A stretch of DNA of 64,000 nucleotides from an uncultured virus (IMG/VR IMGVR_UViG_3300013383_000003). Taxonomy: Duplodnaviria; Heunggongvirae; Uroviricota; Caudoviricetes; Crassvirales. The stretch lies in IMG/VR virus record IMGVR_UViG_3300013383_000003; one strand, 5' to 3'. Below are positions 27,304-48,818 of this stretch, one piece after another. The notes under the pieces are model-generated. The model searched no databases, was not told the origin of the DNA, and saw only the letters and a program-made list of their open reading frames with translations. Within the stretch, counting starts at the first letter, position 1. Each line of letters begins with the position of its first letter. The translations under genes were made by a program, and so were the position numbers.

Positions 27304-28599
27304 ATGGCAATAACAATAACAAGCAGATTTAAGCCTTTTACATATGAAGAGCTTATAAGGCCATTACTACAATATAGAGAAGCTTATGATAAAGTAGAAG
27401 CAGACTATACTACTTTAGCTACACAAGCTGAAGCATGGAAAGATGCTGCTAATAGGGAAACTAATCCCGAAGCATATAAAGCTTATACTAAATATACAGA
27501 TGACCTTAATAAAATTATAGAAGACTTTAGTAAAGGTATGAATCTTAATAATAGCAATACTCTTAATATGAAAAGAAGATATGCTAGTGAAATTATGCCT
27601 ATAGCTAAAGCTGCAGAAGCACAAAGAGAAGCTAATGACCTAAGAGTAAAAGCAGGTCCTGATGCCATATTTGAAGTTGGTAACTATAATTCTTTAGATA
27701 ATTTTCTTAATGGCAAGGTGGCTAATAACAATTATATAAGCAAAGAAGCTCTAATGAAAAGAACTGCCATGGAAACAGAAGCTGCCATGCAAGCTGCTAT
27801 GAATAATATTGAGTTTAGAAAGATATTAGGTGACCAATATTGGGAAATGGTACAGCATAATGGGGGTTCTTATACAGACCTTAGGGATGCTATAGTTAAT
27901 AACCCCCAAGCTCAAAGTATATTTTCTGAAATTAAAAAGCAGGTAATGCAGGACTCAGGATATAATAGATATGATGATAGAGGAAAACAAGCTATAGAAG
28001 AAGCTATAAATACTGGGTTATATGCAGGACTTGATAAGCCAGCTAGGTCATTCCAGGCTAATCAAGCTTATCTTAATCCTTTACAAGCAGAAAGCCTACG
28101 CCAATCTAGAGAAGAGTTTAAATGGAAACAAGATGCCAGAGAACCTATTTCTATAGGAGATAGCTCTTACTTAGACCCTATTACAGGACTTACATTTACT
28201 AAGGATGCTGCAGGAAAGAGAATCTATGATTTAACTTATAAAAAGAATCCTAATAGTTCTACTGGAAAGAGCTCATCTGTAAGTTCAGGAAGTAAAGGTG
28301 GAGGAAGCACTTCTAACAGAGAATATAGACCTAAAGGAGTTACTGTATATGACACAGAAGATGGCAGAGTAATAGAACATGATGTTACTGGTGCTTTAGA
28401 CTTAGAAGACTATAAAGTTATTCCTTATAAGGAGCTGTCAGACCATGATAAAAAAATAGTAGATAAGCATCTTAATGGTGCTACTCCTAATGGGGTAACT
28501 GTTTATAGAAAACATGGACATTTGGCTGTAATAACTAATCCTTCAGAGATAATACCTACAGGGGATAATACTGATACAGGAGAGCATACTGATATTTAA
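27304..28599 (+). CDS. virion cargo/ejection protein 2
   Basis: N-terminus SRFKPFTYEEL..P; helical, no Cys. Confidence 0.6.
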   Translation: MAITITSRFKPFTYEELIRPLLQYREAYDKVEADYTTLATQAEAWKDAANRETNPEAYKAYTKYTDDLNKIIEDFSKGMNLNNSNTLNMKRRYASEIMPIAKAAEAQREANDLRVKAGPDAIFEVGNYNSLDNFLNGKVANNNYISKEALMKRTAMETEAAMQAAMNNIEFRKILGDQYWEMVQHNGGSYTDLRDAIVNNPQAQSIFSEIKKQVMQDSGYNRYDDRGKQAIEEAINTGLYAGLDKPARSFQANQAYLNPLQAESLRQSREEFKWKQDAREPISIGDSSYLDPITGLTFTKDAAGKRIYDLTYKKNPNSSTGKSSSVSSGSKGGGSTSNREYRPKGVTVYDTEDGRVIEHDVTGALDLEDYKVIPYKELSDHDKKIVDKHLNGATPNGVTVYRKHGHLAVITNPSEIIPTGDNTDTGEHTDI

Positions 28600-28609: not shown

Positions 28610-31600
28610 ATGGAAGAAAATAAACTAAAAGGACTACGGAAGCTACAAGGTCTCCAGGGCATTTCTAAGGAAGAACAAGAAATTTGGAGAACTATTAATA
28701 GAGAAAAACTTAAAGGCAAGGATAGTAGATATGAAGACAGACTTTATAGAAATCAACAATTTGTTAAAACTTTCGGTAAGGAAGCTTTGTTATCTTATAA
28801 TAAAAATCAAAGAGATGCTATATATAAAGACTATGTAGCTAATGAGATATTTAAAGAGACATATAGTCCTTATACAGGTAAGGTAGATAAACTTGGTAAT
28901 CCTATAGTAGACCCTAATAAAGGTATGGGTAACGCTGAGGAATATGAGAAGTATAACAGTATGACCGCTGATGGTAAGATTAAACTACTTGAAAGTGGTT
29001 GGAAGTCTGAAAATCAGCTAAATAACTTATTAAAAAAGAGACAAGAATCTCACCGAAAGGCTTTAAGTAATACAAATGCTTTTATTGGTGCTCCTGCTTA
29101 TGCTCAAGGTGCAGCACTTTATTCAAAAGAAGTTACTGACTTTACACCTATAGCTGAAGTATATTCTAAGGGAAAAAATAATGCTATTATTGATAAAATT
29201 TATAGTGATGATTTAAAAAAGCAAACTAAGTTATTAGATAAAGAAGTTGCTGTTGAGTATGATACTAATATTAGAAACCTAAGTGATGATGAGGTAAACA
29301 AAGAGTTTATGCAAAGAATAACTCCTAGTGAAAACAGCTTAGGCAATAATAACTTTAAAGCCTTTTTTCATGATGGTAATAATATAGAAAGTGAAGTAAA
29401 GGATTATAGCATAGATGATAAGAGATTATATCTTGCTAAAGCTAATGTTTATAATAAATACTTTGGGGCTTATACTGCTAAAGATGCTTTAGAGTATGAG
29501 GCTCAAGAATATATCAGTGACCATCAAGATATTATAGACTATAGTGGGGCTTTAGCTAATGATATTGGTATAGCAACAATGTCTTATACAGCATCAAAGG
29601 TTAATGGTATTAGGCAAGGTATAAATCGCTTTAGGGGAAATTCTTTAGTGTGGATAGATTCAGATGGTAATATAATAGCTCCTAATAAAATAAAAACTGC
29701 TAGTAATGGTGCTCATTATTATACTAATAATGAAGGTTATAATACCATAGTAAAGCAGAGAGAAATGAGCATAGCAAACCTTGATTTGTTAGGTAAAGAT
29801 GCTGATGGTTATGATTTACCAAATATTTTTAATAATCAATACTGGTCTGATGCTGAGCAATTTGGTACTCTTAATAAAGAAGAACAACAAGAATATAAAA
29901 AACTTGGTGTATCTCCACATAAAGTAATGTATAAGCCTGGAGAAGGTACAGATTATAAGTATGAGACTGCTAAGATGCTTTCTTTTGGAATGGCAGATGC
30001 ACTTATTAATCTCTTACCTTATGGGTTAGGATGGGCAGGAAAAACATTACAAGGTGCTAACACTTTTCTTAATGCTACTGGTAAAGTAATGCAGTGGTCA
30101 GGAAAAATGTCTGGAGCTATACAACCTACTGCAAGTGCTATAGGTCTTGGACATCAGTATGGTATAGGTACTTTTAATGAGGGGTTTGCACAGAATATGG
30201 CAAATCTTGAAGAAAAAGTATATAATAATATAGAGACTGAATTTAAAGAGAAGTATCAAAATGATGCTAAGTTTAAAGCTAGTATAGATAAGCAAGTTCA
30301 AGCTGAATATAATAAATTAAAGAAAGAGCAACAAAGGCAACTTTCTGCTGGAGAAAATAATATGCAAATAGCTGACCAAAAAGTTAATGATGAGTTACTT
30401 AAAAGGCAAGCTATGAACAATGTAGGTACTGCTTATAAACAAGAAGAACTAAAGAAAGCTAGAAACTCTGATAAATATTTTAATAGTGTTTCTAAAGCTA
30501 TAGAGGATGCAGGTGTCAGTGCCACTGCAATGGCTGTTACTGATGCTGCAAAGTATAGTATAGTAAATAACTTTGGATATAGAAAATATCTTTTTGGTAC
30601 TGCAGAAAGTAGAAAAGTCTCTGCTCTTAAAAAAATGTCTGATAAAGTTTCTGAGAAAGATGGTATTTTAAAGTTTAATGGGCTATTAAACTTAAAGGAG
30701 AATGCTAAAAAGTTAAAAACCGCATTATCAGATGCAGAGAAAAGAGCAGTACTAGCAGAGAAAGCAAAAACTATAGGTAAGATAGTTAAAGACCAAGCTA
30801 TTGGAGGAGCTTGGACTAATTACACTGATGAAATGCAGTCCTGGGGTAGTAAACAGATTAATGAAGATATGTTTACCTCTTACCTTAATAATACCTATGA
30901 TGTGGAGTCTGCTGTGGACTTATATAATGCTTTAGACGGAGTAGAATCTTTCCTTAAAGGTGCTACTGGTTCTATAGGTAGAAAAAGTAATACTGATGCA
31001 GGTATTGTGGGAATAACAGGTTCTTTATTTACACTAGCTCCTAATGTGGCAGGTATATTGCATGCCTTTACTAAGGAAGGGAAGAAACAATGGTCTAAGG
31101 CTACTAATGGAGAAAGAATAAATATGATAGTCCAGCAAGGTATTTTGAATAATTACTATGCAAAGAAACAAGCAGAAGCTGAGATACAAAGAAGTGTAGA
31201 CATGGTTAATACACTTAATCAACAAAATGATAATTTTACATCTTTAAGACAAGTACTGACTTTAAATAGAGCTATTGAAAATGCTACAAACCAAGAACAA
31301 AAGAATATACTGACATATCTTCAAGCACTTACATCTATACAGAATTTACATAAATTTTCTACAGATGTAGGGGTACAAGAGCAATCTTCCTCTAGAATAA
31401 AAGAGTGGTTTAGAAAAAAGTTTGGAGGAGATGAAAGTGCATTAGATGCAGTAGCTGCACAATCTACTATACTCACAAAAGCTTTAGCTGAATTAAGTGA
31501 AATTACTTCAGGGAATTTTAATGATGCTACTAAGAAAGAACTCCTTGCAGAGTACTATGCTAAGAATCCTGATAAAGCACAAACAGAAGAAAATAATAAT

Positions 31601-34600: not shown

Positions 34601-36106
34601 GTTACTGATATAGATACTATACAGCAACTTAAACTTTCTAACTATATTAGAACTAATAATTTATCCCCAGTATTAGTAAATAGTAGTAAGCAAAAAGGAA
34701 AAGTTGTAGAAGTTTATGTTATTAATGATTCTAAAGTAATAACAAAAGAAGATGGAGTATTAATAGAAAGAAATGAAGAGGATTCTAAAAAAATTACAAC
34801 ATACTTACGTAATAAGCAGTTACAAAAAGATAGAGAACAAAAAGCTCAAGAAGAGTTAAAAACTAAGCAACCTGAAGCATCTGAAAACACAACTCCAAAA
34901 GTACTTACTGATGAGCAGCTTATAGCTCAAGGTAATGGTGACTTTACTTCTACTGCTAAACCTCAGTCTACTGACTCAGAGGTAAGAGCACAAGAAGTAG
35001 TTGATAGAATTATCACTGATACACATGATATAGTTCTTGATGAAAAGAGAAGTATCTACACTGATTCTACAGGCAAGGAATATGCTAGAGTAACTTCAGT
35101 AATACAAGCCACAGAAGGTGCAAAAAGATTTTACCCTAATAGTCCTTGGATTCTTCCCTCTACTAAAATTGGCACAGGCATAGATGAGTTTGTAAGAGAC
35201 TTCTTCGCAGGGAAACTAGGTAATCTAGAGAATCTACATAAAAGATACCCAAATGCTTCTTTACCCCAGCTCCAGGCTTTTGAAAAGCAGTTAAAGGAGC
35301 TAAAGGCAGACTTTGATAAGAAAGGTCTTACAGTAGTTCCTAGAGATGTTACAGTAACAGGTGAAGTAGAAGTAACAGATGCTAATGGAAAGAAATATAA
35401 ACTTTCAGTAGCAGGAACTTTAGATTTACTTGCTTATGATAAAGATGGTAACTTCTACATCTTTGACATGAAGACCAATAGAAGTATTCCTAATGATAAT
35501 AAAGCTTCTAAATGGAGTAAGCAATTATCTTTGTATAAGCAATTCTTGGAAGAGAAATATGGTATCAATGTGAAGGGTACTGAAATTATTCCTATAAAGG
35601 TAAGTTATCCATCTCCTTATGCAGTTAGTTATAAAGCGGAGGGCAATCAACTATCAACTACTGTTGATGGTCTAGAGGAATCATTTAGAAGTTCTAAGCC
35701 AATTCTTTATCCCAATATACCAATCTCTACTAGCCCTGTAAAAGTTGAATATAATCTACTTACTAATGAAGAAAGGTCTATGCTATCGCCTATCATAGAT
35801 GGTACATATAACCCCACTACAGGCACTATAAACAAAGAATCTGTAAATAAGAGCAATGAAGACATTAATAAGACAGGTAACAAGTCATTAGCTGAATTAC
35901 AGGCTAGTGCTAATACTAATCCTACTGATATTAACTCAATACTAAAGAACAGAACTTATAGTAGAAGAGTAAGAGAAGTACTAAAGAAGAAAGGTTTTAA
36001 AGGTAAACCTTCTGAAGTAACAGAGTGGTTAAAAGAGCATAATATGCCAAGTACTAATATACAAGATATTGATGCTTGGTTAGATATGTTAGAAAACTGT
36101 AGATAA
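28610..36106 (+). CDS. giant virion (ejected) protein with C-terminal PD-(D/E)xK nuclease domain
   Basis: 2498 aa; RVTSVI...AGTLDLLAYD..G..YIFDMKT...QLSLY near the C-terminus. Confidence 0.8.
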   Translation: MEENKLKGLRKLQGLQGISKEEQEIWRTINREKLKGKDSRYEDRLYRNQQFVKTFGKEALLSYNKNQRDAIYKDYVANEIFKETYSPYTGKVDKLGNPIVDPNKGMGNAEEYEKYNSMTADGKIKLLESGWKSENQLNNLLKKRQESHRKALSNTNAFIGAPAYAQGAALYSKEVTDFTPIAEVYSKGKNNAIIDKIYSDDLKKQTKLLDKEVAVEYDTNIRNLSDDEVNKEFMQRITPSENSLGNNNFKAFFHDGNNIESEVKDYSIDDKRLYLAKANVYNKYFGAYTAKDALEYEAQEYISDHQDIIDYSGALANDIGIATMSYTASKVNGIRQGINRFRGNSLVWIDSDGNIIAPNKIKTASNGAHYYTNNEGYNTIVKQREMSIANLDLLGKDADGYDLPNIFNNQYWSDAEQFGTLNKEEQQEYKKLGVSPHKVMYKPGEGTDYKYETAKMLSFGMADALINLLPYGLGWAGKTLQGANTFLNATGKVMQWSGKMSGAIQPTASAIGLGHQYGIGTFNEGFAQNMANLEEKVYNNIETEFKEKYQNDAKFKASIDKQVQAEYNKLKKEQQRQLSAGENNMQIADQKVNDELLKRQAMNNVGTAYKQEELKKARNSDKYFNSVSKAIEDAGVSATAMAVTDAAKYSIVNNFGYRKYLFGTAESRKVSALKKMSDKVSEKDGILKFNGLLNLKENAKKLKTALSDAEKRAVLAEKAKTIGKIVKDQAIGGAWTNYTDEMQSWGSKQINEDMFTSYLNNTYDVESAVDLYNALDGVESFLKGATGSIGRKSNTDAGIVGITGSLFTLAPNVAGILHAFTKEGKKQWSKATNGERINMIVQQGILNNYYAKKQAEAEIQRSVDMVNTLNQQNDNFTSLRQVLTLNRAIENATNQEQKNILTYLQALTSIQNLHKFSTDVGVQEQSSSRIKEWFRKKFGGDESALDAVAAQSTILTKALAELSEITSGNFNDATKKELLAEYYAKNPDKAQTEENNNKALEEITNNAKSLIEAESKWQEIDAKLKQVEEDRGEPINSKAREKLLTNSALDSYYGERINTLEEKISGKAANTSREFIGEIYGKAKAVKRQITTLERDKKETERRIQSAKDAYEKTEALLKKYEETHDFEHLSDFEKTEYRELVQKAEAERLQLEYLQQLSEQQSSKIEQLTEYTKETNSRVLTKEEILMLPSEARAFMLDESNLNRYSKEQQKVLKELTKELNLKDPSILQSIQDQAYLARLKEANASAYNMILSNPEAAAVQLQVQQEINSSQVNNYISRLIGEQLDRAVRRLARESNMSKEDIGNVLYSKLREYNPYILDYLYNTRTDEKGLGTIATYKEIMQKAKDWSEMVANIRNAIDKMELDDTTTKLFSKNIEHLIDEAGSTEEAMQILNDISESMDVSTEDRANFKKLLSMIDGIEKQKASTVKETKESKEARQESQETQVKQEEKKVQDAENKVDIEKSNEKNAQEAIEVTDKEAANDNYTEEHKEEIITNGEEAPTESPNLDKQVANTKSEKPITVREVTTDVTNQGNTLQSSSSDMLGNTMYGYDNKALEEDGKEVVRAGSDPKDAMSRYFNWLHNEGIKLQEIIDNELHSISKVNKKIELLYVNPLQNATDDAALGNFTLLCVEYTDEVAKIHKEERGGVVTAGGKKYLIVGTLGFAKNNTAQGDAFRSITRQGHQQRDSYFRDNPTERFFVDKSMSTEIEQMTSGRIVREKIGDSETKVRPITEILNDSSRNPKGLKLVDLKWGIQYGRKFATVGVSERNTVYPPRDSISNSGAVFVLIEAANGNYIPAAIKPTLLGDIQEGTFKTILNNLFNELTSVNYNDRKKAISQLVQLLVLNKNGNNILIGKEGINTVSIVREGNILKTFNVADSNFDRMELIRAIEDLNPRINITLSTLSDPVLLQAFADAGALNTDIAKLGTSNAGFTVSAIDAEGKPIKTVTIENKEPNLEGNSDLAKANYKQQHSIYYKGTLYREKNNKWYTDNWKEVTDIDTIQQLKLSNYIRTNNLSPVLVNSSKQKGKVVEVYVINDSKVITKEDGVLIERNEEDSKKITTYLRNKQLQKDREQKAQEELKTKQPEASENTTPKVLTDEQLIAQGNGDFTSTAKPQSTDSEVRAQEVVDRIITDTHDIVLDEKRSIYTDSTGKEYARVTSVIQATEGAKRFYPNSPWILPSTKIGTGIDEFVRDFFAGKLGNLENLHKRYPNASLPQLQAFEKQLKELKADFDKKGLTVVPRDVTVTGEVEVTDANGKKYKLSVAGTLDLLAYDKDGNFYIFDMKTNRSIPNDNKASKWSKQLSLYKQFLEEKYGINVKGTEIIPIKVSYPSPYAVSYKAEGNQLSTTVDGLEESFRSSKPILYPNIPISTSPVKVEYNLLTNEERSMLSPIIDGTYNPTTGTINKESVNKSNEDINKTGNKSLAELQASANTNPTDINSILKNRTYSRRVREVLKKKGFKGKPSEVTEWLKEHNMPSTNIQDIDAWLDMLENCR

Positions 36107-36145
36107 AAAAATAAGCCAGTAGGGAATTTCCTTACTGGCTTTATT
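36107..36145. terminator. bidirectional terminator between convergent arms
   Basis: A-run, AAGCCAGTAGGG-AATTT-CCTTACTGGCTT, T-rich tail. Confidence 0.85.
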
Positions 36146-36151
36146 ATTATA

Positions 36152-39100
36152 TTATTTTTGCATTATATTTTTATTGAATATATTGAAAACACTTTCATCT
36201 TCTCCCATATTATATATTTGCTCTAACTGTCCATAGAAAGGCACTGTATATTTTTTAATATTTCTCCAATATTTATTTTCTCCTTTATGTGGTCCTGATT
36301 TAATTGTTTCCCCTATATCATCTATACATACAAATGGGTATAATAAAGAATTGACTGTGTTAGTAGCAGCTACAGGACTATTTATTAAAGTATTCATCTC
36401 CATAGGAATACCCCAAGGAGTAGAACCATTTACATCTACTGTAGACCTTTTAACTTGATACATAAACATCCTTAACCACCATCCTCTTTTATGTTCATCT
36501 GGTTCTCCAAGAGCAAATCCCAAGGTTAATAAACAAGATAGTACACTTAGTTCAGTAAGTGCTCTTCTAACATTAGCTTTTTGTAAAGTATCTAATTTAT
36601 TCCAATGAGCCCCTATTTGGAATTCAAGATTTATAGCATCTTTAAATAAGTCTGCTGCAAAATCAAAAGTAGTTCTATAAAACCCTTCTCTATATTCTTC
36701 TAGTCTAGCATCCCAATGTTTACTCCTATACCTTCTAGCGTAATGTTCTATCATCCATTGCCTCATATTTAAAATAAGCCTACCTGCCATATATTGCTGT
36801 ATATACCCTTTATCTTCAGTATTCATAGCACCTTGAGTAGTCTGATTGACATACCTTATTTTCTTTCTAATAGTTTGTATAAAGACATTATCTATAGGAA
36901 CTTCTTTTTCTTCATTATTAGTATAAGTAGCATTCTTATCAAATACTAATTCTGAATTACCGTCTTTGTTGTTTTGTATATTAAATATATCATATAATGA
37001 GACTTCTTTGCCATTTAGTTTTACTTTAGTATTATGTAGTACTGCATACATTGTGGTAAATCTAAGAAAGGCATCCCCAGCACCATAACCTATCATAGAT
37101 AAATCAGTACTTATAAGTTTATTTATAATACCTCTGTCATACCTTTTATGAGAAGCTCTTTCAAAATTATCATCTGTTGGGTCAAATAATTGTCCAAGCA
37201 AAGCTGCTTTACTGTTTTTACTATTAGTGACCCAGTCAACTATTTCTCCTGGTGTTTTTGTAACAGCATTTCCAAATAATTTAGCCTCTGCCCAAGCTAA
37301 ATCTTTAAAACCAAAAAATTCTCCTCCTCCTGCTTCAATGATTAATTGTAAATTACCCACAGTAGCATTTGAAATCATACCTTTAACATTCAAAGCAAGG
37401 TTCTTTATAGATGTATATTGTATAAGATTTCTAAGTAAATAATGCCACTTTCCTATTTTAACATGTTCACCATATATAGCACTGTTTATAAAGCCATTTA
37501 CAAGTGATATAGTATTAGACTTATTAGAAAATGCAGTCAATGATTTAAAGATTCTTATACCATTATTTTCTATAAGTTCTGCTTTCCTTTGGTTAGAACC
37601 ATCAGAAGCTGCTACTTCTTGATTTACTATATAATCTTGCATAAATTCTACAGTATCTTTAATATTATTCATAGCTTCATAATTAATAGCTGTGCCTGCA
37701 AGATGCTGTATTGCTGAAGAAAAATCTTTAAATAATTCATTGGAGTCATTAATTTTATTAATGAAAAATATAGGTATTTGCCTAAAAGGAGTATTATCCA
37801 TAGTACCACTATATAATGTATATTCCTCGGTATTTACCGTGCCTTGCTGTCCATATCTAGTATCATCTTCTCTTATGGTTACAAGGTCTTTAAATTTATT
37901 TCTTAAGGCTTTTACAATTCCCTTGAAATCTCCATTCTTTATAGATTCTCTAGTAGCATCCCAGAAGGACCTTCTAATTTGAGGAGGTACATACTGTCTT
38001 TGTGCATAAGGAGGTAATAGTGTTCCTAACTCTCCTTTTATTTGCATCATAGTATCATAGTATTCTTGTTGCTCCTTAGTAAGCTGTGGGAATGGTTTTC
38101 TATAATTACTATTAGGGACTCTTTCAGTTCTACCACTTACTTTATCCACAACTCTATCCTCAGTATTGGCCTCTTCCCAATTATCCATAGCTTCTTTTAA
38201 AGATAATCCCTTATATCCTAGTTTTTCAAGTCTCATTTTATGAGTGTTCTTATGCCTTATGTAAGTATTCCAATCTATATCACTAATGATATAGCCATTA
38301 TTTTCATACATAAATGCAGAAGTACTTCCTGATTTTCTTAAAGCATTTTCTGCTCTCCTAATTCTAAGGGATATATCATTCATCTTTGCATCTCTACCAC
38401 TTTGGGCGTCTCTTATTATATTACCCATAACAGCAATTAAGGGATTAGACACAGTACCCATACTATAAAGAATATCATAGATAGAGGAGTCAGCGTTAGC
38501 CATACTTACAATATTAACCACAGCTTCTCCATTAGGCAGTTTATCCCCCAAGAATTCTGTAGCTATATTAGTCATATTTTCTACTTTGAGGTCTTCTATA
38601 ACATTTTTATATTTATCAAAGAACCCTACTAACTTAGAAGCTTGGTCTTTAAGGTTTTGTATTTCTTGAGTACTCATATCTTCATCAGTAAGCATAGTAT
38701 CTGCTTTTGATAGAGCTTTTAAAATATGTTCATAACCTTCTGTAATCCTTTTTACTTGCATTAAAGTACTGGATAAAGCAGCAGCTTTTTCTAAATTAGT
38801 ACCACTTTGTGGGGTATTTTTTATTAAAGTCTCTAATTGTTGTATTTGTAAAGTAGCTTCTCCTAAAAATCCTAATAGTCCTGCATAGTAGTTATTACCA
38901 CTTAACTCTTTAGTAATTATACTAAGAGTTTTTTCTACTCTAAGAGCTTCTGGAGTAACTCCTTGAGTTGATACAATTTGATTTAGTTGTCTTTGTAGAG
39001 TAACAGCAGCTTCTGATGCAGCTCTAGATAACGACCTAATTCTATTACCAATTAATAGTACTTCATTAAAATCTATCTTATATTGTTTATTTAAGCTCTG

Positions 39101-40003
39101 CAAAGTAGCTTCTATAGAAGCTTCTTCTGTATTACTAAGATTATTGTCAATATTAGATAATTGTTTCTTTAATGCAGTAATATCTAAATTCTTAAATTTC
39201 TTACATGTATTTAGAGCAGCCTCTATAAGAGTCATTTGATTATTAGTAACTGAGCCTCCCCTATATGATTCATATATTTTCTGTGCTACATCATCTAAAG
39301 AACCAAACAATTGCTTTAACCTCTTTACTTGTGAAGAGTCCTCACTAATAACTAATAAATCCTTTATTTCTCCTTTGCTTAAGTACTTATTATCAGTATT
39401 TTGCACATTAGATATCCACTGTATAGCATCTTTAGCATTAACAGCATTAAATATTGATTTACGTAAATCCGCAGTATTAATATCTATTCCTATAGAGTTC
39501 ATAGCATGTGACAACACACTCCACTGCTGTAACTGTTTATCTACTTGTAAACTTCTCATATGTGTTCTAGAGGTTTTAGCTTCAAGAACAATATTAAACT
39601 TATCTCCCTTAGAATATACAGCGGCTACTATACCTTTATAAGTATTATTTATCTTTTGTGCTTTATCAAGAGCTTTTTTAGCATCAGTAAAATCAATAGG
39701 AATATTTTGAGAATCAATAGTTCCTTCCATTCTAGCTATTCTCTCTACTCCTACGTTTTGAGACCCTAATTCTTTCTTTAAATCTACAAGGTTTAAAGCT
39801 TTTTCTACATCAGCTATAGAATGCTCACCTTGTTGATTTCTTACAAAATTATTACTATCCATCTGTGCAGCTACACTTGTAGTGTAGGCTGCATAGAAGT
39901 AGTTTGCCATGGGTCTATTTCCTGTATATTTCAATAGGTCTTTATATAATTGACTAGGTTTTCCATCTTTACCTAGAGGATATAGTACACAATCATTTCT
40001 CAT
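36152..40003 (-). CDS. giant virion protein downstream of the RNAP
   Basis: About 1283 aa; likely start MRNDC at 40003, next to the RNAP stop. Confidence 0.75.
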   Translation of the reverse strand: MRNDCVLYPLGKDGKPSQLYKDLLKYTGNRPMANYFYAAYTTSVAAQMDSNNFVRNQQGEHSIADVEKALNLVDLKKELGSQNVGVERIARMEGTIDSQNIPIDFTDAKKALDKAQKINNTYKGIVAAVYSKGDKFNIVLEAKTSRTHMRSLQVDKQLQQWSVLSHAMNSIGIDINTADLRKSIFNAVNAKDAIQWISNVQNTDNKYLSKGEIKDLLVISEDSSQVKRLKQLFGSLDDVAQKIYESYRGGSVTNNQMTLIEAALNTCKKFKNLDITALKKQLSNIDNNLSNTEEASIEATLQSLNKQYKIDFNEVLLIGNRIRSLSRAASEAAVTLQRQLNQIVSTQGVTPEALRVEKTLSIITKELSGNNYYAGLLGFLGEATLQIQQLETLIKNTPQSGTNLEKAAALSSTLMQVKRITEGYEHILKALSKADTMLTDEDMSTQEIQNLKDQASKLVGFFDKYKNVIEDLKVENMTNIATEFLGDKLPNGEAVVNIVSMANADSSIYDILYSMGTVSNPLIAVMGNIIRDAQSGRDAKMNDISLRIRRAENALRKSGSTSAFMYENNGYIISDIDWNTYIRHKNTHKMRLEKLGYKGLSLKEAMDNWEEANTEDRVVDKVSGRTERVPNSNYRKPFPQLTKEQQEYYDTMMQIKGELGTLLPPYAQRQYVPPQIRRSFWDATRESIKNGDFKGIVKALRNKFKDLVTIREDDTRYGQQGTVNTEEYTLYSGTMDNTPFRQIPIFFINKINDSNELFKDFSSAIQHLAGTAINYEAMNNIKDTVEFMQDYIVNQEVAASDGSNQRKAELIENNGIRIFKSLTAFSNKSNTISLVNGFINSAIYGEHVKIGKWHYLLRNLIQYTSIKNLALNVKGMISNATVGNLQLIIEAGGGEFFGFKDLAWAEAKLFGNAVTKTPGEIVDWVTNSKNSKAALLGQLFDPTDDNFERASHKRYDRGIINKLISTDLSMIGYGAGDAFLRFTTMYAVLHNTKVKLNGKEVSLYDIFNIQNNKDGNSELVFDKNATYTNNEEKEVPIDNVFIQTIRKKIRYVNQTTQGAMNTEDKGYIQQYMAGRLILNMRQWMIEHYARRYRSKHWDARLEEYREGFYRTTFDFAADLFKDAINLEFQIGAHWNKLDTLQKANVRRALTELSVLSCLLTLGFALGEPDEHKRGWWLRMFMYQVKRSTVDVNGSTPWGIPMEMNTLINSPVAATNTVNSLLYPFVCIDDIGETIKSGPHKGENKYWRNIKKYTVPFYGQLEQIYNMGEDESVFNIFNKNIMQK

Positions 40004-40004
40004 T

Positions 40005-43000
40005 TCAACATAATTTTTCAAATTCCTTGTTTAAAGATTCCTCATTATAAGGTACTTTTAATTCTGTAAGCCTTCTTCTTAGGAAATCTTTTATTCTTGT
40101 TTCCATAGATTCTTTCTGCTCTGCAGGAAGGCTCTTAGCCTCTTGTATTGTGGCTTCAGCCTCTTCAAAAGTTTTTCCATCTGTCATAAATATTCTATGT
40201 AATAAATCTACTTGCTCTTGTTTAGACTGTGTTATCTCAGCATCTTGTGTATCTGTAGTAGTTGGGAAGATTTCTCCGTAGTCAATAGTATCATCCATAA
40301 GGCTATCAAAGTTTTCAATAGGATTCTTACTAACATCTGTGATTTCAACGTAATCTTTATTACTTCCTAGAGGTTTAACTTCTTTATAAGCTCTAGTTCC
40401 TTCTGCTTTATAAGTAAGCTTATATATTTTATAAGAATCTTCTGTCTTTATTTTAAAATATTGAGCATTGCCTACTATATCCAAGCTATCTTGGTCTGTA
40501 ATAATAATATTATCTCCTTGTTCTACCCATCTTATACCTTCCTTTATAGGTACTAATTTATTATTATCCCAATTATTCCTTACAAATTGGTCATACACTA
40601 CCTCAGGAACTACTTTAGGTAATAATCTATAAGTATCTACATATCCCTTAATTCTTTCTTTTACATATACAGGAGTCAAAGAGATAAAAGTCTTAGGATT
40701 AAATCCTATTCCTCCTCTAAAAAAACAATACTTAAATAGCTTCTCTGATAATTCTGGATTTTTCCTATGTAAGTCTATCCAAGCACTACTTAAAGTTTCC
40801 TTATAAGTAGAATCAAGCCCAGTAGTATCTATTTTTAGTACCATTCTTCCTGCTTTATCAGTATCATACTTAATAGCTTGAATTAAAGCATTATCAGAAT
40901 ATTGAGCTTTATATTTTTTATTATAAAATTCTTTTGGAAATTTTGTTATATAGTAATACAACTCATCTTTATTAATAGTACCATTAGCTGTGAGTAAATA
41001 CGATTGATAAAAATCACTTAAATCACTTAGTATCTTTCTATTTCCCAGTAAATAACTATTATTTTCAAAGATATAATTTAAGATTTCTCTAAAGCCTATA
41101 CTATTAGCTGGCATTCCTTTAAATAATTCATTGGCTATATCATAAGATTTGCTAAACTGCTTTAGAATAGGATGCTTTTCAAGTAACTCTGTTAGTCCTA
41201 TGGGGGTTTCTCTAGCATCTAAAATATTACTTTCTAATACTAGTTTTAAAGCTTTATATTTGGCTATAAGATTATCTATAATGAGTGGTCCTACAGCACT
41301 TGTAATAGAGTTATATCTAGTAGCAAATGTTAGTAATTGTAGGGATTGTGATAATTTAAGAAGATTCTGTAGAGCTATCAGCACCTTATAATTGATTTCC
41401 TGAGTCCCTTCTTTTAATCCTTGAATAAGCTCTTTTTTTGTAAGTGCCTCTTTGTTAAGAGCACTTTCTTTAGTAATGTGAGCATCTTTAATAATCTTAT
41501 TCTTAAGTCTTTCTACTATATTATATAAAGGTGTATTACCTGTAATATTTGCCTTATTATATTCATTAAGAACCTCAGTAATAATGTTCTGAGATAAGAA
41601 TAAAGAAGCATCTTCAAATGGCATTCCAAGTCTTATAAGAGTAATAAGAATATTAGCAGTATTACTATTAATATTCATAAGATTTAACACAGGGTCTTTT
41701 ACAGCATCTACAGAACTTGCTACAAGACATCCTAATACTTTACCTAAAGATTCTCCCTTAATATTATTTCTAGGGTCTATAGTCATTTTATGTGTAAAAG
41801 TCATGTTTCCTATAGTGAATGACTCTCCCACTCCACAAGCATTAAAGACATTAACTTTATACCCTTCATTTTCTATAACAGCATGTGCTACTCTATTAAC
41901 AGCAAATATGCCTATAAGAGCTCCTGCAGCATTATTTTGTTTATAGAATTGCACATGAGTATCAATAAACATCAAATTTTTACCTTTTACAGCTAAGTTT
42001 TTGAGGTCTTCAGTTTTCATTTTAGAAAGCTGCTCATAACTCATATCAGTATTTTTTGTTGCTGTTATAAGATAGCCCATTCTTTTTTGAGGTTCAAATC
42101 CTCCAGGGTTAAGCATTTCTGCAGCACTAGATTCCTGTGTTAATACTTCATAAGTCATATCTACAATTTTATTATTTCTATAGATTCTACCTTCTGTAGG
42201 TTTTTCTATAGTATAGGCGTTTTGTAAATACAACCTTAGCATCTTATTATAAGCCCCTTCTGGTAAAGACATTACTCCTTCTGCAGTTCTTTGATTAACA
42301 AGAGCATTCTTACTAAAAGGATTATCTAAGAACATACTAACTAAATCTCCAAGTTGCTGCTTTAATTCAAAACTTAACTTTCCACTTTGTGATTCTACTA
42401 AGGAATCATATAATATTTTATGTAATCCAGACTTAGAGGTTTTAGTTCTTTTAATATTTAAATCTTTCAGCATTAAATATGCTTTATCTATATCGTAGTC
42501 AGAGCCATTAATTAGTGTTATATCATAAGGCATCATTATGCCATCTCCTGCTTCCCTAGGTAAGAATCCTACAATCTTCATAGGAGCTATAGAATATTTA
42601 CTTTCAGTGGGTATTCTATAGCCAATCATCTTTAATAGGTCAGGGTCAAGAGCCTCTATAGCTTCTATATTAATATTACCTTCTTTATCAGCAAATTGGT
42701 TAAATAACTCATTAGTATAAATAGGGGCAAATACTTCATAATAAGCTATGCCTCCTTGATTTTCTTTTACATATTCTAAATATTCAGTTTCTCTATTTTT
42801 TCCTTCGGTATTTAAAATTTTCTTTGCATAGAAACCTAATGCTTTTTTATCACTGCTATCCCTGTCTTTCCCTTTAGAAAGTTTCCTTTCTTTACTCCAA
42901 GTTTCGTAAGTTTCTCGTCTAGCTTCTTTATCCAAGTATCTTGACTGGATGTATTCTTTTTCTGTTCCAACATAATTATCTTTTAAATTTTGTATTAATA

Positions 43001-46000
43001 ATTCTATATTATCTCCAAATTCATCAGCATTTTTTGAAAATGCTAGTAATGTAATTTCATTAGTAGTTTCATTAAAAGTGTAATCCATAAATCCTGACTT
43101 TTCTAATATATCAGGAACATTATCAGCATTTTTTACTTTTATTTTAAGGGCTAAAGCATCTGCTGCCTCTTCAGAATTTGCTGAATTATAAGAAATTACA
43201 GCTTCTTGTTGCTCATATCCTAAATCCCCCATTATAGAAGCAAATAAGTCAGCTTTTGATTTATCTGTCGTATTTAATTCAAAAGTGTAACTAAGTTCTC
43301 TTACTTGTGTACCTACAGTTTCACCTTCTTGAAACTGAAAACCTCCTATATTCTTACTAAAACTTGCTATAGAGATACCTAAGTTATTAGCTACCTCTTG
43401 CGCTTTATCTAAGAATATTTTTTGTATTTTATTAGTAATTTCTTCTTTATTGCTTTCTGTTATTTTAGTATTATAATAGGGAGCTATAGTAGTATATATA
43501 GGTTCTATAGGTGTAGTGGTTTTCTTAGAGCTCTGCCATTCTTCTCTAGTCTTTAATAAACCTCCATTTTTATCTTTAAATCTAATATTTAATTCTCTTG
43601 AAGTACCAAAATTAGTAACCTGTACTACAGGGCCTCCCTTTATTTCCTGTTTATTAACTCTATTCTTTATAATAGAATTGATAAGTTGTTCTACTCTCTT
43701 ACTTTGTATTGGGTCTCCAAGAGGAATCCTAAACTTTCCATTCTCATCAACAGAGCAGGCCTGTAATAAATCTATACTATATCTAGAGCTTGATAATATT
43801 TCTCTCTGTAATAGTTTACTTAGGGCAATATTTCTTTCTTTAGCATTATAATCATTTAAATGTAGTTCTTCACTTAATTCTTTTAAGCTTTCTTCTATAT
43901 TAGCTGCTATAGTATCTTCATATTCTTTTTTAAATTCTTCAGCTGAAAGTTTTCTACCTTCTACATTATAAGTAACCTCATTACCATAAGCATCTTTATC
44001 TGCAAGCTCTGAAACTATAATATATCTAAGTTGAGAACCATGCATTTGTTCATGATTTTTAAAGTGCTCTGGTACTTCTTGCTGCAATGTATAATCCTCT
44101 AGGTCTAAAGTATCTACATAATCAGGGTTATATTCAGTGCTTTTACTTTCTATAGCAATAGTTTCTACTTCTCCTGTAACACTATTAAGCCTTTGTGTAG
44201 TAATAGGTTCTGTTTTATATATACAAGCCTCTAATACAGCTTTGGCTTTAGCTTCACCATTAGCATCATTAATATATTTATTAATATCTATAGCACCATG
44301 TAATCCTGACTTTACTGTAGATTCAAACTGTACAGTATCTATACCATCAGTTTTATAATTACCATCAGCATCATAATGGCTATTTTCCATTACTTCATAT
44401 ATAGCCCTTAATAAATTAGGTCTTCCTGTATTTTCTCCTTGCAGTATAGCATCTGCCATAATCAGAAGATATTCAGAGTTTTTATTTTGTACAGGTACTT
44501 TTAAATTTGTTATAGGAGCTTCTGATACGCCAGAAGACATCTCGTGTTGACTATAAACAAAAGGCTTTAGAGGCTGAAAAGCAATATTTAAATCGCTATA
44601 GTTATAATCACCTTTTCTTAGTTTTTGATAAATCTCTTCAGCTTTAGTGCTCCATTTACCAAACATCAAGGCTTTCTTTCTATAAGAAGTAGGAGAAGCA
44701 TAGCCTTGAGCATCTGCAACATTAATTTTTCTATAAGCACCATCTTTTCCAACTAAGGATTCTTTAAGTGCTTTAAGAGCTGTTTTTTGTTCTCTAGGAG
44801 CTTCTGCTATCTTTTTATCAAACACTACAGAGATATTATCTATAATATTAGATATAAAGTTATCAAAGTCTTTTAAGTATAAAGTTCTAGTTTTGCCATC
44901 TGTAACTCTCTGACCTTTATAATCCAACACATTAATGTTAGCTCTAATTCCTGGAGAATGAAGCTGTGCAAGTCTCTTTTGCAAATCTTCAGCATCTTTA
45001 TAATAAGCTATATCAGTAATAGTTAGTTCTATTATATTCATTGCTGCAAAGGTATCATTCCATACAAAATTTTCAAGATTATGCATTATCTCTGCTTTAG
45101 AACTTCCTATTCCTGTAATCTTCTTAGCAGCTTTTACTATACCATTATCATTCCACTGTTCTACTATAGCTTTAGCTCTAGTTTCCATAGTATCATAAAT
45201 AGCATCATAAGCTAATTTATATAGTTGTGCTTCATCTATCTCTTTACCATCAATCTTATCTTTAAGTAGTTTACCAAGTTCACTGTCTTTTTTCTTCCCT
45301 ATAAGATAATCATTCATAAAATCAAGGAAGCAAAATTTCTTACCATTTTTATCAAAGTTCTTTATAAATCTTGGGTCTTTGCTATCAAGATTTCTCATCA
45401 TTACAGTCTGGATTCTACTTAATTCTTGATTAAATATATCCATAAAACCATTAGTGAGTGTATCTTTATAGTTAACTCCTCGTTCACTATAAAATCTTAT
45501 AAACTCTGAAGAAGGTTTGTTAGATAGCATAGGAACTCTGAACCATGCAGGAACTTTAGATTGTGTATCATTAGTAGCTTCTGAAAAATATTCTGTAATT
45601 AATGATAGGGTATACTGCAAATTATCCATATTCTTCATATAGTTGTGCTTATCAAAATTAAGCTGTACTTTATGACTGAATATTTCTCTAGACTTTCTAT
45701 CAGTAACTAAGGCTTTTAACCATGCATTTCTCCATCCTCTCTCAATATCAGTACCATTATGAAACCATTCTGAGTTACCATATTCCGACATTATAAAGTT
45801 ATCAAAGGATTCTCCCTTTTGCTTAAATTTAGTAATTAACTTAGTCATATAAGAAGGAGTAATATAACTTTGATACATCTTTCCACTATCATAAAAAGCA
45901 GAAACCATAGTATCTTCAAGTCCTTCAGTAATAGGCTTTAAGAATTCTCTAACATTACCTACTATACTGCCCTCTGACTTAAAAGTAAAAGGTGTATAAG

Positions 46001-48818
46001 TCTTATTGTCTAAGTTTTTACCAAGAGCATCTACTATATAGTATAAAGCACTGTACATCTTTCGGTAATTCTCATTATTAAGATTTTGTTTTACCATATC
46101 TGGAGTAACATAATATCCTAATATATTTGAGATATAACCTAATGTATTGGCGACTTCATTTTTATTAGCCTCATTATTAATATCATATCCAGAATGCTTA
46201 AATTTTTCCAAGCTTTCAAAGGCTTCTTTCAGCTCTTTATAATTATGTCTATTAATACCTTCAGAAGTAAATAAAGGGTGCTCTCCTACTTTATATTGTG
46301 TAGTAATTTGTGTTATAGCTTCTGTAAGAGCTGGGTTATTATTTACTATAATACTTTTATATTTACCATTTTCTTTAATTACTACAGAATAAGGTTGGAA
46401 ATGCTTGCAAAAGGTACTAAAAAACTGACTTTGAAAATCACTTTCTTTGCCTGTAGTATCTATAAGTCTTTCTATAACTTGTTTAAGCCAAGGATTTTTA
46501 TTTTGTTGTTCTTGTAACTTTGCTACCATGTCCTCAAGAGTTAATGCACCTTGTGTTAACCTCAATATAGTATTAGTAGCTTGTCTTACATTAACTCTCT
46601 CTTTTATACCAAATTCAGAAACTATAGGATTACCATTATTATCTAGTTGATAGCATTGCAATAAAGCTTTCTTTACTAGTTGTGACATGCTTCCTAGCAC
46701 ATCTAGGCATCTTGATTCAATTTGCCAATGTTCTTGTAGATTACCCTCTGCTTCCTCTACACTATCTGAATCATTAGATTCATTAAAGTTATCAGCATCT
46801 GCAAATATATCTTCATTTACCTCATTAACCTTACCATCATTAGAAGATACTATACTAAAATTCTCTGTATTTAAGAATGTATTTTGTGCTATAGCCATTA
46901 TAGCTTCCCAGTTATCTGTAATAGCAGTAGCTTTGTCTATAGTATCAAAGCTATCAAAATCATTATTTTCAGGAGAAAACTTTTGTTTACACATCTCCAT
47001 AATGTTATCTACACCTATAGTTCTGACTACATCAGCTCTAGACATTGCAGAGAAATTTTTTCCTTCAAATCTATCTCCATAGATAGTTTTAGCTAACTCT
47101 GGATTCTCCTGTAATTCAGTAATATGGTCTGAAATCCAATATACAGCTTGTTCAGCTATATGTCTTACTTCTGTTGCAGAAAGGAGATTATCATTAAGAA
47201 GATTATCTATTTGCTTTATTATTTTTTGCTGTTTTGTTATATAAGAATCTTCAGTGGAGAGTTTATCATTGTCAAAGTAATCACTACTACCTGTATAATC
47301 ATCAATACCTCCCCTTAAATCCTTATTAGCAGCATTAAAGTACTCTTGAGATATAGACATAATCTCTTCTAAAGCAGAGTTTTTAAGTTCTATCCCTTGT
47401 GCTTTGAATACTTTATTAAATAGATTTGTGATATAGTTTATAAACCTTTTAAAAGCATTCTCTTTCTTATCTATCTTTATTTTACTAAGCACTATTTGAA
47501 ATTCTCTATTAGTTAGAGCTTCAGCTATAAATTCTTTAGCATTAGTTAAACCATACCATTCAGTTCCTTTTAATTGCTCTTTGCATTGAAGATATAAATT
47601 CCATGTATTAGTTGCAAACTCTGTTTGTGCCTCATTAAATCCTTTTATTTTAGACCAAGAAGGATGATAATTTAAGATTTCAGCAGTAACAGAATGTACC
47701 AATTCATGTGTTAATACCTTCATTAGATTTCCTTTTATATTATTTCTATCATCAGTCATTAGATATTCTAATAATAATGAAGGATTGAATCTTATAGTAG
47801 CTGTTTTAAAACCATCTTGCTTTCTTGCTGCTATACTAGGTAAAGAAGAGTCTATCACTATATTAATAGGAATATCATTATTCCTTAATATCCCAACTAT
47901 TTGTTTAAATAGTTGGTGATAAGGATTGTCAGGTTTTGCTTTACTTAAAAGGTCATCTATTAAGGAATTATCAAGAGTTACACCTTCTTGTTTTAGTATT
48001 TCTAAAGCATTTTCACTTTCTTGCTTAGCCTTTTCACTAGAATAATAATCCTCTCTTTCAAGTAATTTAAGGTCTTTATTTATCTCTTCTTGCCTTGCAG
48101 TAGCTTGCTCTGTATGCCATCCTTTTACTAAATCCTCTATTAAATTAGGATTCTCCAATTTACTTAGAAGATTTTCAAGTCTAGATAGGTTGTGAATAAT
48201 ATTACCATAATTATCTACTCTAACATTAGTATTATATTCTCTATTAAAAGCAGCTACTTTTTTTCTTAATGCTCCTACTTTTCTTTTTAATGGAAGAAAC
48301 TCAAAGTCTCTCTTAGCTATCTCCATTAAACCAAGAACATTATTTAAAGCTCTTACTTTTCGTTTTACAGCATCTATTCTATTATCTATAGTGTTTCTTA
48401 AAGAAGATTCAGATTCTCCATCATAAGAAATATCAAGTTCATTATCTCTATAATAATCTATATTATAATTAGCAGGCCTTCCAACAACTACATCATAAGT
48501 ATTATTTTTCTTTTCTATAATAGACACACTATTATCTCCAAAGAATTTCTTTGCATTAGTAGCTTCTACATTAGCCATTTCTAATGTAAGACAGTTAATA
48601 GGAGAAGAGTATTGTTTTCTCCATAATTCTATAATATCTTTATTACCCTCAAAAGGTTTTGGCTTTAAAAGATTATTTACCTCTTCTACTGTAGGAAATC
48701 TATCATTATTCTCAGCATTTTGTCTTTTATGAATAATTAATTCCAGCATAGGAGAAGAAATATCTACTTTATTAAGGAGGTATTTAAACTCCTTTGAACT
48801 AGTATTTACACAACTCAT
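40005..48818 (-). CDS. single-chain virion RNA polymerase (two-barrel) with N-terminal zincin domain
   Basis: 2937 aa; GYRIPTE and GSDYDIDK (catalytic DxDxD), ASSVDAVKDP, THELVH...EFIAE. Confidence 0.92.
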   Translation of the reverse strand: MSCVNTSSKEFKYLLNKVDISSPMLELIIHKRQNAENNDRFPTVEEVNNLLKPKPFEGNKDIIELWRKQYSSPINCLTLEMANVEATNAKKFFGDNSVSIIEKKNNTYDVVVGRPANYNIDYYRDNELDISYDGESESSLRNTIDNRIDAVKRKVRALNNVLGLMEIAKRDFEFLPLKRKVGALRKKVAAFNREYNTNVRVDNYGNIIHNLSRLENLLSKLENPNLIEDLVKGWHTEQATARQEEINKDLKLLEREDYYSSEKAKQESENALEILKQEGVTLDNSLIDDLLSKAKPDNPYHQLFKQIVGILRNNDIPINIVIDSSLPSIAARKQDGFKTATIRFNPSLLLEYLMTDDRNNIKGNLMKVLTHELVHSVTAEILNYHPSWSKIKGFNEAQTEFATNTWNLYLQCKEQLKGTEWYGLTNAKEFIAEALTNREFQIVLSKIKIDKKENAFKRFINYITNLFNKVFKAQGIELKNSALEEIMSISQEYFNAANKDLRGGIDDYTGSSDYFDNDKLSTEDSYITKQQKIIKQIDNLLNDNLLSATEVRHIAEQAVYWISDHITELQENPELAKTIYGDRFEGKNFSAMSRADVVRTIGVDNIMEMCKQKFSPENNDFDSFDTIDKATAITDNWEAIMAIAQNTFLNTENFSIVSSNDGKVNEVNEDIFADADNFNESNDSDSVEEAEGNLQEHWQIESRCLDVLGSMSQLVKKALLQCYQLDNNGNPIVSEFGIKERVNVRQATNTILRLTQGALTLEDMVAKLQEQQNKNPWLKQVIERLIDTTGKESDFQSQFFSTFCKHFQPYSVVIKENGKYKSIIVNNNPALTEAITQITTQYKVGEHPLFTSEGINRHNYKELKEAFESLEKFKHSGYDINNEANKNEVANTLGYISNILGYYVTPDMVKQNLNNENYRKMYSALYYIVDALGKNLDNKTYTPFTFKSEGSIVGNVREFLKPITEGLEDTMVSAFYDSGKMYQSYITPSYMTKLITKFKQKGESFDNFIMSEYGNSEWFHNGTDIERGWRNAWLKALVTDRKSREIFSHKVQLNFDKHNYMKNMDNLQYTLSLITEYFSEATNDTQSKVPAWFRVPMLSNKPSSEFIRFYSERGVNYKDTLTNGFMDIFNQELSRIQTVMMRNLDSKDPRFIKNFDKNGKKFCFLDFMNDYLIGKKKDSELGKLLKDKIDGKEIDEAQLYKLAYDAIYDTMETRAKAIVEQWNDNGIVKAAKKITGIGSSKAEIMHNLENFVWNDTFAAMNIIELTITDIAYYKDAEDLQKRLAQLHSPGIRANINVLDYKGQRVTDGKTRTLYLKDFDNFISNIIDNISVVFDKKIAEAPREQKTALKALKESLVGKDGAYRKINVADAQGYASPTSYRKKALMFGKWSTKAEEIYQKLRKGDYNYSDLNIAFQPLKPFVYSQHEMSSGVSEAPITNLKVPVQNKNSEYLLIMADAILQGENTGRPNLLRAIYEVMENSHYDADGNYKTDGIDTVQFESTVKSGLHGAIDINKYINDANGEAKAKAVLEACIYKTEPITTQRLNSVTGEVETIAIESKSTEYNPDYVDTLDLEDYTLQQEVPEHFKNHEQMHGSQLRYIIVSELADKDAYGNEVTYNVEGRKLSAEEFKKEYEDTIAANIEESLKELSEELHLNDYNAKERNIALSKLLQREILSSSRYSIDLLQACSVDENGKFRIPLGDPIQSKRVEQLINSIIKNRVNKQEIKGGPVVQVTNFGTSRELNIRFKDKNGGLLKTREEWQSSKKTTTPIEPIYTTIAPYYNTKITESNKEEITNKIQKIFLDKAQEVANNLGISIASFSKNIGGFQFQEGETVGTQVRELSYTFELNTTDKSKADLFASIMGDLGYEQQEAVISYNSANSEEAADALALKIKVKNADNVPDILEKSGFMDYTFNETTNEITLLAFSKNADEFGDNIELLIQNLKDNYVGTEKEYIQSRYLDKEARRETYETWSKERKLSKGKDRDSSDKKALGFYAKKILNTEGKNRETEYLEYVKENQGGIAYYEVFAPIYTNELFNQFADKEGNINIEAIEALDPDLLKMIGYRIPTESKYSIAPMKIVGFLPREAGDGIMMPYDITLINGSDYDIDKAYLMLKDLNIKRTKTSKSGLHKILYDSLVESQSGKLSFELKQQLGDLVSMFLDNPFSKNALVNQRTAEGVMSLPEGAYNKMLRLYLQNAYTIEKPTEGRIYRNNKIVDMTYEVLTQESSAAEMLNPGGFEPQKRMGYLITATKNTDMSYEQLSKMKTEDLKNLAVKGKNLMFIDTHVQFYKQNNAAGALIGIFAVNRVAHAVIENEGYKVNVFNACGVGESFTIGNMTFTHKMTIDPRNNIKGESLGKVLGCLVASSVDAVKDPVLNLMNINSNTANILITLIRLGMPFEDASLFLSQNIITEVLNEYNKANITGNTPLYNIVERLKNKIIKDAHITKESALNKEALTKKELIQGLKEGTQEINYKVLIALQNLLKLSQSLQLLTFATRYNSITSAVGPLIIDNLIAKYKALKLVLESNILDARETPIGLTELLEKHPILKQFSKSYDIANELFKGMPANSIGFREILNYIFENNSYLLGNRKILSDLSDFYQSYLLTANGTINKDELYYYITKFPKEFYNKKYKAQYSDNALIQAIKYDTDKAGRMVLKIDTTGLDSTYKETLSSAWIDLHRKNPELSEKLFKYCFFRGGIGFNPKTFISLTPVYVKERIKGYVDTYRLLPKVVPEVVYDQFVRNNWDNNKLVPIKEGIRWVEQGDNIIITDQDSLDIVGNAQYFKIKTEDSYKIYKLTYKAEGTRAYKEVKPLGSNKDYVEITDVSKNPIENFDSLMDDTIDYGEIFPTTTDTQDAEITQSKQEQVDLLHRIFMTDGKTFEEAEATIQEAKSLPAEQKESMETRIKDFLRRRLTELKVPYNEESLNKEFEKLC

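Follow-up and report, generated by a model that had tools for sequence, protein, structure and literature searches.

Facing terminal cysteine residues in the RNA polymerase cargo proteins of crAss-like phages suggest an end-to-end disulfide link

We analysed a stretch of 64,000 nucleotides from an uncultured virus of the Crassvirales (IMG/VR record IMGVR_UViG_3300013383_000003), hereafter called the window, which encodes three giant virion proteins between positions 28610 and 48818: a 2498-residue protein (module A), a 2937-residue virion RNA polymerase (RNAP; module R) and a 1283-residue RNAP-associated virion protein (module B). When the modules are placed in the order A-R-B, each of the four ends that face one another at the two junctions carries a cysteine residue, and the two outer ends carry none. 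The same pattern recurred across the crassviruses compared, in some of which two of the modules are fused, and we consider it probable from the comparison of protein sequences that A, R and B are joined end to end in the particle by two inter-protein disulfide bonds.

Terminal cysteine residues of the three giant proteins

Pfam matches to the ring, muzzle and cargo families placed the window as part of a crAss-like phage genome. Module A (28610-36106, + strand) was recognized from its open reading frame (ORF), translation, blastp matches and gene order as the counterpart of crAss001 gp47 and phi14:2 gp67. The similarity was weak but significant (blastp E 5e-10 for gp47 and E 8e-6 for gp67), a PD-(D/E)XK nuclease-like region was found at residues 2243-2333 (Pfam PF12705, E 1.1e-4), and the gene follows those of the muzzle, cargo 1 and cargo 2 proteins, the same position as that of gp47 in crAss001. 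Module R (40005-48818, - strand) was assigned by phmmer, blastp and its catalytic motif as the counterpart of crAss001 gp50 (blastp E 1e-78) and of the phi14:2 RNAP gp66 (PDB 6vr4, phmmer E 8e-22); the catalytic DYDID (DxDxD motif) lies at residues 2107-2111 (nt 42486-42500). Module B (36152-40003, - strand) was assigned by tblastn and blastp as the counterpart of crAss001 gp49, annotated as a 'putative RNA-polymerase subunit' (26% identity, tblastn E 7e-55; blastp E 8e-64), and of phi14:2 gp65 (blastp E 1e-21). Its ATG start agrees with those of its homologues, and a 100% identical 1283-residue protein is on record. The gene is convergent with that of A and begins 1 nt past the RNAP stop codon, directly downstream of R. 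The closest named genome was that of the uncultured phage cr116_1 (Steigviridae), whose module B is 61% identical. By these matches, A, R and B make up a crAss-like RNA-polymerase cargo block of the gp47/gp50/gp49 type.

Module A has only two cysteine residues, Cys1632 and the penultimate Cys2497 (C-terminus ...LENCR). Module R has 14, including Cys3 (MSC...) and, as its final residue, Cys2937 (...EKLC), and module B has cysteine residues at positions 5, 267, 1157 and 1226. Both outer ends, the N-terminus of A (MEENK...) and the C-terminus of B (...NIMQK), are cysteine-free, and the neighbouring proteins of 606, 431 and 293 residues contain no cysteine at all. The counts in a first-pass annotation of the window, which had proposed from them a head-to-tail chain joined by disulfides or metal, were all correct. 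The four junction-facing residues were checked at the codon level and are all encoded by TGT: Cys2497 of A at 36098-36100 (+ strand), Cys3 of the RNAP at 48810-48812 (- strand), Cys2937 of the RNAP at 40008-40010 (- strand) and Cys5 of B, which forms part of the motif C-x-L-Y-P, at 39989-39991 (- strand). Thus a cysteine lies no more than five residues from the end in 4/4 junction-facing ends and in 0/2 outer ends of proteins that contain 0.30% cysteine overall. The other ORFs of the window contain 1.48% cysteine, and only 13 of their 114 termini have one within ten residues of the end. The facing residues are therefore not an effect of composition.

The N-terminal part of module R also contains a zincin-like HELVH motif (residues 371-375), in a region with no Pfam match. 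Homologues of R span 2692-3554 residues, and some carry the extra domains PF18760 (ART-PolyVal) and PF01966 (HD). Because length and domain content vary in this way, the N-terminal part of R looks like a variable 'polyvalent' region.

Conservation across Crassvirales and gene fusions

The terminal cysteine residues were conserved in the close relatives of all three modules, counted among the listed matches of each search. For module A, the penultimate cysteine was present in 120/120 of the homologues listed from 682 matches, and in 33 of these 120 it was the sole cysteine in ~2,500 residues; a cysteine in the first 12 residues was found in 0/120. For module R, 120/120 of the homologues listed from 1189 matches had the C-terminal cysteine, which forms an invariant column in alignment A3, and 116/120 had a cysteine within the first seven residues. 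The four without it have unrelated N-termini and, by their sequences, look like start miscalls. For module B, a cysteine occurred in the first nine residues in 107/108 homologues, the exception being an N-terminally truncated form of 1051 residues, and in the last eight residues in 0/108; the Cys5 column was invariant in alignments A1 and A2.

Module B was also followed more widely by comparing its first 1200 residues with one representative per 50%-identity cluster. Among the best 150 of 1648 matches, 132 were retained as full-length-like (1200-1500 residues with a Met start) and 18 fragments or fusions were dropped. A cysteine was found in the first 12 residues in 128/132 representatives and at residues 14-15, behind a longer basic leader, in three more. 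In the remaining one the sequence sets in just past the motif, probably because the start was miscalled. None of the 132 had a cysteine in the last ten residues.

We then compared all the termini in a panel of 28 genomes, consisting of the window and 27 genomes hand-picked from tblastn matches for taxonomic spread, leaving aside near-duplicates (for instance the 25 PhiCrAssBcn isolates). The panel covers Steigviridae, Intestiviridae, Crevaviridae and Suoliviridae (including Oafivirinae), together with Dulem virus 41, Flavobacterium phage FpV4 and Leptolyngbya phage Lbo-JY46. Termini were taken from the annotated genes, excluding eight N-termini that lay beyond the sequence at hand and the four termini at which R appears to be split (in cr116_1 and in IAS virus). 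A cysteine lay within ten residues of the end in 71/73 junction-facing termini (within five in 67/73) and in 0/49 outer termini, where the interior cysteine density of 0.13% leads to an expectation of 1.3% per terminus (Fisher p = 3.5e-32, uncorrected for shared ancestry). The expectation of the first-pass annotation that the terminal cysteine residues would be conserved across Crassvirales was borne out by this comparison. In 17 of the 55 complete proteins the junction cysteine residues were the only ones present. For example, phi14:2 gp66 has two cysteine residues in 2180 (3 and 2179), gp65 has Cys3 as its sole cysteine and gp67 has one at the C-terminus; in crAss001, the sole cysteine of gp47 is at 2339 of 2341 and that of gp49 at residue 5. 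Identities in the comparison were as low as 17-26%, so that selection has kept the terminal cysteine residues in place through change in nearly everything else.

The A, R and B genes are collinear in the order A-R-B in 18/28 genomes. Gene A is on the opposite strand, far from R, in 6/28, including the window, and the terminal cysteine residues are kept there, so a nucleotide signal at the start or stop does not explain them. We give almost no credence to chance or a gene-calling artefact as the source of the pattern. A few N-termini do hinge on the choice of start, such as those of crAss002 gp33 and P0359, but the C-termini are fixed by stop codons and were cysteine-bearing in every listed homologue of A and of R, and the panel counts are far from the expected frequency.

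Gene fusions gave a second view of the junctions. Three architectures were found in the panel: all modules separate, R fused with B, and A fused with R. In Steigviridae-like genomes the three proteins are separate and each of the four facing ends has a cysteine. R and B are fused in six Intestiviridae, in cr127_1 (Crevaviridae) and in Leptolyngbya phage Lbo-JY46; in these genomes A keeps its C-terminal cysteine, the fusion protein starts M-x(1-3)-C and its C-terminus is cysteine-free. A and R are fused in ten Suoliviridae and in FpV4, where the giant protein first matches the nuclease region of gp47 and, further on, gp66. The N-terminus of these giants is without cysteine, a cysteine lies 1-3 residues from the C-terminal end (49 in cr273_1), and the separate B protein begins with a cysteine at residues 3-6. 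At the estimated positions of the fused junctions, no cysteine pair was found. Two of the fused cases have hardly any cysteine: Lbo-JY46 has two cysteine residues in 4,300, both at the open junction, and FpV4 gp32 has one in 4287, at the penultimate position. Judged from these sequences, every module junction is either a peptide bond or a facing cysteine pair, as expected if the pair replaces the peptide bond. The fusion pattern also fixes the order A-R-B. It agrees with the order proposed in the first-pass annotation (2498-residue protein, RNAP, 1283-residue protein), with only the remaining junction keeping its cysteine pair.

The fusions also bear on the possibility that the terminal cysteine residues bind other partners (the portal, the capsid interior or cargo proteins 1 and 2) or carry a modification, serving packaging or anchoring. 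A fused junction would lose its cysteine residues in this case too, the ends being gone; the crAss001 particle has been described as having many disulfides between different proteins, and a lone cysteine near residue 5 also occurs in FpV4 gp30 and in a 1182-residue protein of cr8_1. This explanation leaves unexplained, however, why the cysteine residues occur at the junction-facing ends and at none of the 49 outer ends, and why their number is always even and complementary to the fusions. In the window, moreover, cargo proteins 1 and 2 cannot be the partners, as both are cysteine-free. We therefore regard other partners as unlikely.

Several observations on individual genomes of the panel stand apart from these counts. 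In FpV4 gp30 (L020 6779-8575, 598 residues) the sole cysteine is at residue 5 (MKKKC), and the 1182-residue protein of cr8_1 (L019 2178-5726) has Cys5 in the start MTKKC; these two residues may be further terminal links. In cr116_1, the 5' piece of the RNAP ends in cysteine, and the interruption falls inside the catalytic DFDVD motif. A new cysteine pair at this split polymerase was considered and rejected: the split is a group I intron, and the terminal cysteine is intron read-through. The interruption (L002 8653-9492) contains two matches to Rfam Intron_gpI (E 7e-7 and 4e-6, both below the gathering score), which flank a 215-residue ORF matching Pfam LAGLIDADG_2 (E 9e-25), a homing endonuclease, and the record annotates the intron-split RNAP as two proteins. 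The split of R in IAS virus sits among ambiguous bases. In Suoliviridae, many in-frame stops were found in the genes of cr273_1 (L023 6741-30275) and also in L014, L015, L021, L022, L026 and L027. In the two cr273_1 genes whose stops were typed, all proved to be TAG: the giant has 36 and its partner 12, and both genes close with TAA. This pattern fits TAG recoding in late genes.

Nature of the link

A precedent for a link of this kind comes from cyanopodophage A4 (Anabaena phage A-4L), in which cryo-EM of the pre-ejectosome showed the C-terminal helix of gp27 seated in a cleft of gp26 and held there by a disulfide between Cys1715 and Cys5 (PNAS 2025, PMC12002296). In the A-4L genome, Cys1715 is the sole cysteine of gp27 (1717 residues) and Cys5 that of gp26 (1114 residues), encoded by the next gene. 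The likeness to the crassvirus proteins is as follows: two large capsid-stored ejection proteins are encoded by consecutive genes, the first with a sole cysteine near its C-terminus and the second with a sole Cys5, and gp26 starts MSKHC, to be compared with MSKRC and MAKKC in crAss001. On the other hand, A4 has one link and no three-module chain, no polymerase, and an arrangement as a fivefold ring around the portal axis; in the available text, its authors present the disulfide neither as a rule nor as a threading device (PMC12002296). No relationship was seen at the sequence level, as A-4L gp25-gp29 gave negative or near-zero bit scores in hmmsearch (profile A1) and in phmmer (nine crAss reference proteins), and no phage protein was matched when the same profile was run against the PDB. 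Because there is no sequence similarity, A4 and the crassviruses share the same device and not the same family. An end-to-end cysteine link in Crassvirales would be a variant of a device that has been described once, in phage A4. The first-pass annotation knew of no description of such a mechanism; this stood for Crassvirales, where we found none either, but not for phages at large, given the C-terminal-to-Cys5 disulfide of A4 (PMC12002296).

The literature on cultured crassviruses places the relevant proteins in the particle. gp47, gp49 and gp50 were detected in the crAss001 particle by mass spectrometry and assigned to the capsid cargo zone (PMC10172136), and presence in the virion is known, by mass spectrometry, only for the proteins of crAss001 and phi14:2 (PMC10172136; bioRxiv 10.1101/2020.03.07.982082). 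The crAss001 set gp47-gp50-gp49 and the phi14:2 set gp67-gp66-gp65 are orthologues of the window proteins with the same terminal cysteine residues. Inter-subunit disulfides have been reported in crAss001 virions, in the tail and at the portal vertex (PMC10172136); these brace fixed parts, namely the tail hub, ring proteins and the gp57 dimer, and not ejected cargo (PMC10172136). Fused RNAP forms have been supposed to be polyproteins that are 'likely cleaved' (bioRxiv 10.1101/2020.03.07.982082). In the available text of the papers on cultured crassviruses no covalent link between separate cargo proteins is proposed, and the word 'cysteine' has 0 occurrences in the crAss001 atlas (PMC10172136) and in the phi14:2 polymerase preprint. 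Our literature search, with subscription journals outside it, yielded no paper mentioning these terminal cysteine residues, and a 2026 paper on N4 describes crassvirus ejection proteins as still awaiting structures (PMC13434306).

From the analogy with A4 and the occurrence of disulfides in crAss001 virions, we infer that the link would be a disulfide. The alternative of a metal ion (Zn or Fe) held between the facing cysteine residues would give an inter-protein clasp and the same head-to-tail chain. The conservation and the fusion pattern fit any pairwise link, and particles assemble in a reducing cytoplasm, which could allow a metal site to form. However, zinc clasps and hooks of the paired-CxxC type take two or more ligands (CxxC or Cys/His) from each partner, whereas each terminus here has one cysteine with no conserved neighbouring cysteine or histidine, and two thiolates are too few for a normal zinc site. 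A four-cysteine metal site shared by all the ends was ruled out, as the fused lineages keep two cysteine residues (in Lbo-JY46, two in all). The sole solved case with the same signature, A4, is a disulfide. Both the A4 analogy and the single cysteine per end thus favour a disulfide over metal, and a metal clasp appears improbable to us.

We hold it to be improbable as well that the ends dock non-covalently and that the cysteine residues act after injection, for example as a switch of the polymerase complex that responds to redox state or metal in the host cytoplasm, with no covalent chain in the particle. The motifs around the cysteine residues are conserved, C-x-L-Y-P in the window clade and C-P-N in Suoliviridae, which suggests that the ends form a specific surface for docking and are more than a bare tether. 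However, a single invariant end cysteine in otherwise cysteine-stripped proteins is what a covalent tether requires, and the A4 structure, as described, has docking and disulfide together. A co-fold of residues 1-450 of B (with alignment A2) and residues 2738-2937 of the RNAP (with no alignment for the RNAP piece) gave a score of 0.00, which speaks neither for nor against contact at the R-B junction.

The retained residues should also be seen against the scarcity of cysteine in ejected proteins. In N4-like phages (Schitoviridae), the giant virion RNAP and its companion ejection proteins are almost cysteine-free, which has been ascribed to the need for unhindered passage through the periplasm (PMC11445570). 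Cysteine is also scarce in the crAss cargo proteins. The N4-type polymerase differs in being one protein of ~3,400 residues with essentially no cysteine, and with no conserved terminal cysteine or sign of an inter-protein link in the available descriptions. Because cysteine is suppressed in ejected proteins, the terminal residues that are retained stand out.

In the disulfide-linked arrangement that we consider probable, the C-terminal cysteine of A would be joined to the N-terminal cysteine of R, and the C-terminal cysteine of R to the N-terminal cysteine of B. The product would be one chain of ~6,700 residues with the N-terminus of A at one end and the C-terminus of B at the other; as each link lies only a few residues from a terminus, this chain would be unbranched. 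Such a tether would keep A, R and B in a 1:1:1 ratio and in order. Crassvirus cargo proteins are thought to pass the tail partly unfolded, and an N-to-C exit route has been proposed for the cargo protein gp45 (PMC10172136); the chain could take the same route, each protein drawing the next through the tail, and the reducing cytoplasm of the host may open the links.

Several points weigh against this arrangement. All the support is comparative, and the bond has been observed in no crassvirus. An anoxic gut and a reducing cytoplasm put the source of the oxidant in question, and the disulfides in purified crAss001 could in principle come from aerobic handling. Judging by the natural fusions, the proteins can function when permanently joined, so that neither a reversible link nor release in the cytoplasm is obligatory. 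The panel genomes are related, so that the counts are not independent events, and two junction-facing termini lack the expected residue. One is crAss002 gp33, with its cysteine at residue 35 from the annotated start, and the other is the cr273_1 giant, whose last cysteine lies 49 residues before the end, in an acidic tail. Finally, the window RNAP carries 12 internal cysteine residues; the RNAPs of the window clade have 12-15 in all, and seven internal ones are invariant among close relatives, so that in this clade cysteine is not confined to the ends. As regards crAss002 gp33, an internal Met33 (L010 4172-4270) opens the sequence MSCTPS..., like the MSC start of other Intestiviridae fusions, and by this resemblance the true start probably lies 32 codons downstream of the annotated one.

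Neighbouring genes and implications

Upstream of module A, the window encodes ring protein 1 (20133-20819, Pfam), the crassvirus muzzle protein (20816-25360, Pfam crAss_MUZ), cargo protein 1 of 606 residues (25465-27285, Pfam crAss_CARG1) and cargo protein 2 of 431 residues (27304-28599, Pfam crAss_CARGO2). The 293-residue protein gave no family match in the Pfam scan, so that only the 606- and 431-residue proteins were identified as crassvirus cargo.

Just upstream of the polymerase lies the gene of a 71-residue protein of the crAss001_48 family (48958-49173, - strand; Pfam PF21825, E 5e-15). In crAss001 the gp48 gene is downstream of gp49, unlike the copy in the window. This gp48-like protein was ruled out as a member of the chain, as it contains 0 cysteine residues. 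Beyond it is a thioredoxin gene (49163-49420, - strand), genuine by its WCGQC active site and its family. The first-pass annotation had drawn attention to a thioredoxin just upstream of the RNAP; the gene is indeed close by, but the 71-residue gene lies between it and the RNAP start, so that it is near and not adjacent. Together with a ThyX thymidylate synthase, it sits in a run of small genes (49163-51375, - strand), the usual crAss nucleotide-metabolism cluster. The annotated thioredoxins of cr111_1, p-crAssphage and cr8_1 likewise have genes for dNMP kinase, dUTPase or reductase around them, and the 30-kb stretch of crAss001 has no annotated thioredoxin. The thioredoxin thus gives weak support to the linkage, and a part for it in the cysteine device was rejected as unsupported.

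A further-reaching proposal is that the modules are stitched together post-translationally into a linear 'disulfide polyprotein' of ~6,700 residues that would be ejected as a single thread, with host reductants freeing or switching on the polymerase, and that facing pairs of terminal cysteine residues are a general signature of ejected, linked proteins. Its generality would follow from the use of this device in podophages unrelated to crassviruses, A4 among them. We put this forward tentatively, as a possibility with the odds against it.

Crassviruses are the most abundant human gut viruses, and how polymerase-associated protein amounting to ~700 kDa passes through their narrow tail is an open question. 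A conserved covalent tether, if true, would explain the fixed stoichiometry and the fixed order of A, R and B as well as the free splitting and fusing of the gene block. Facing terminal cysteine residues would then offer a simple annotation rule for recognizing and ordering ejected proteins, and if they are a general signature, genomes alone would reveal the ejected proteins and the way in which these are linked.

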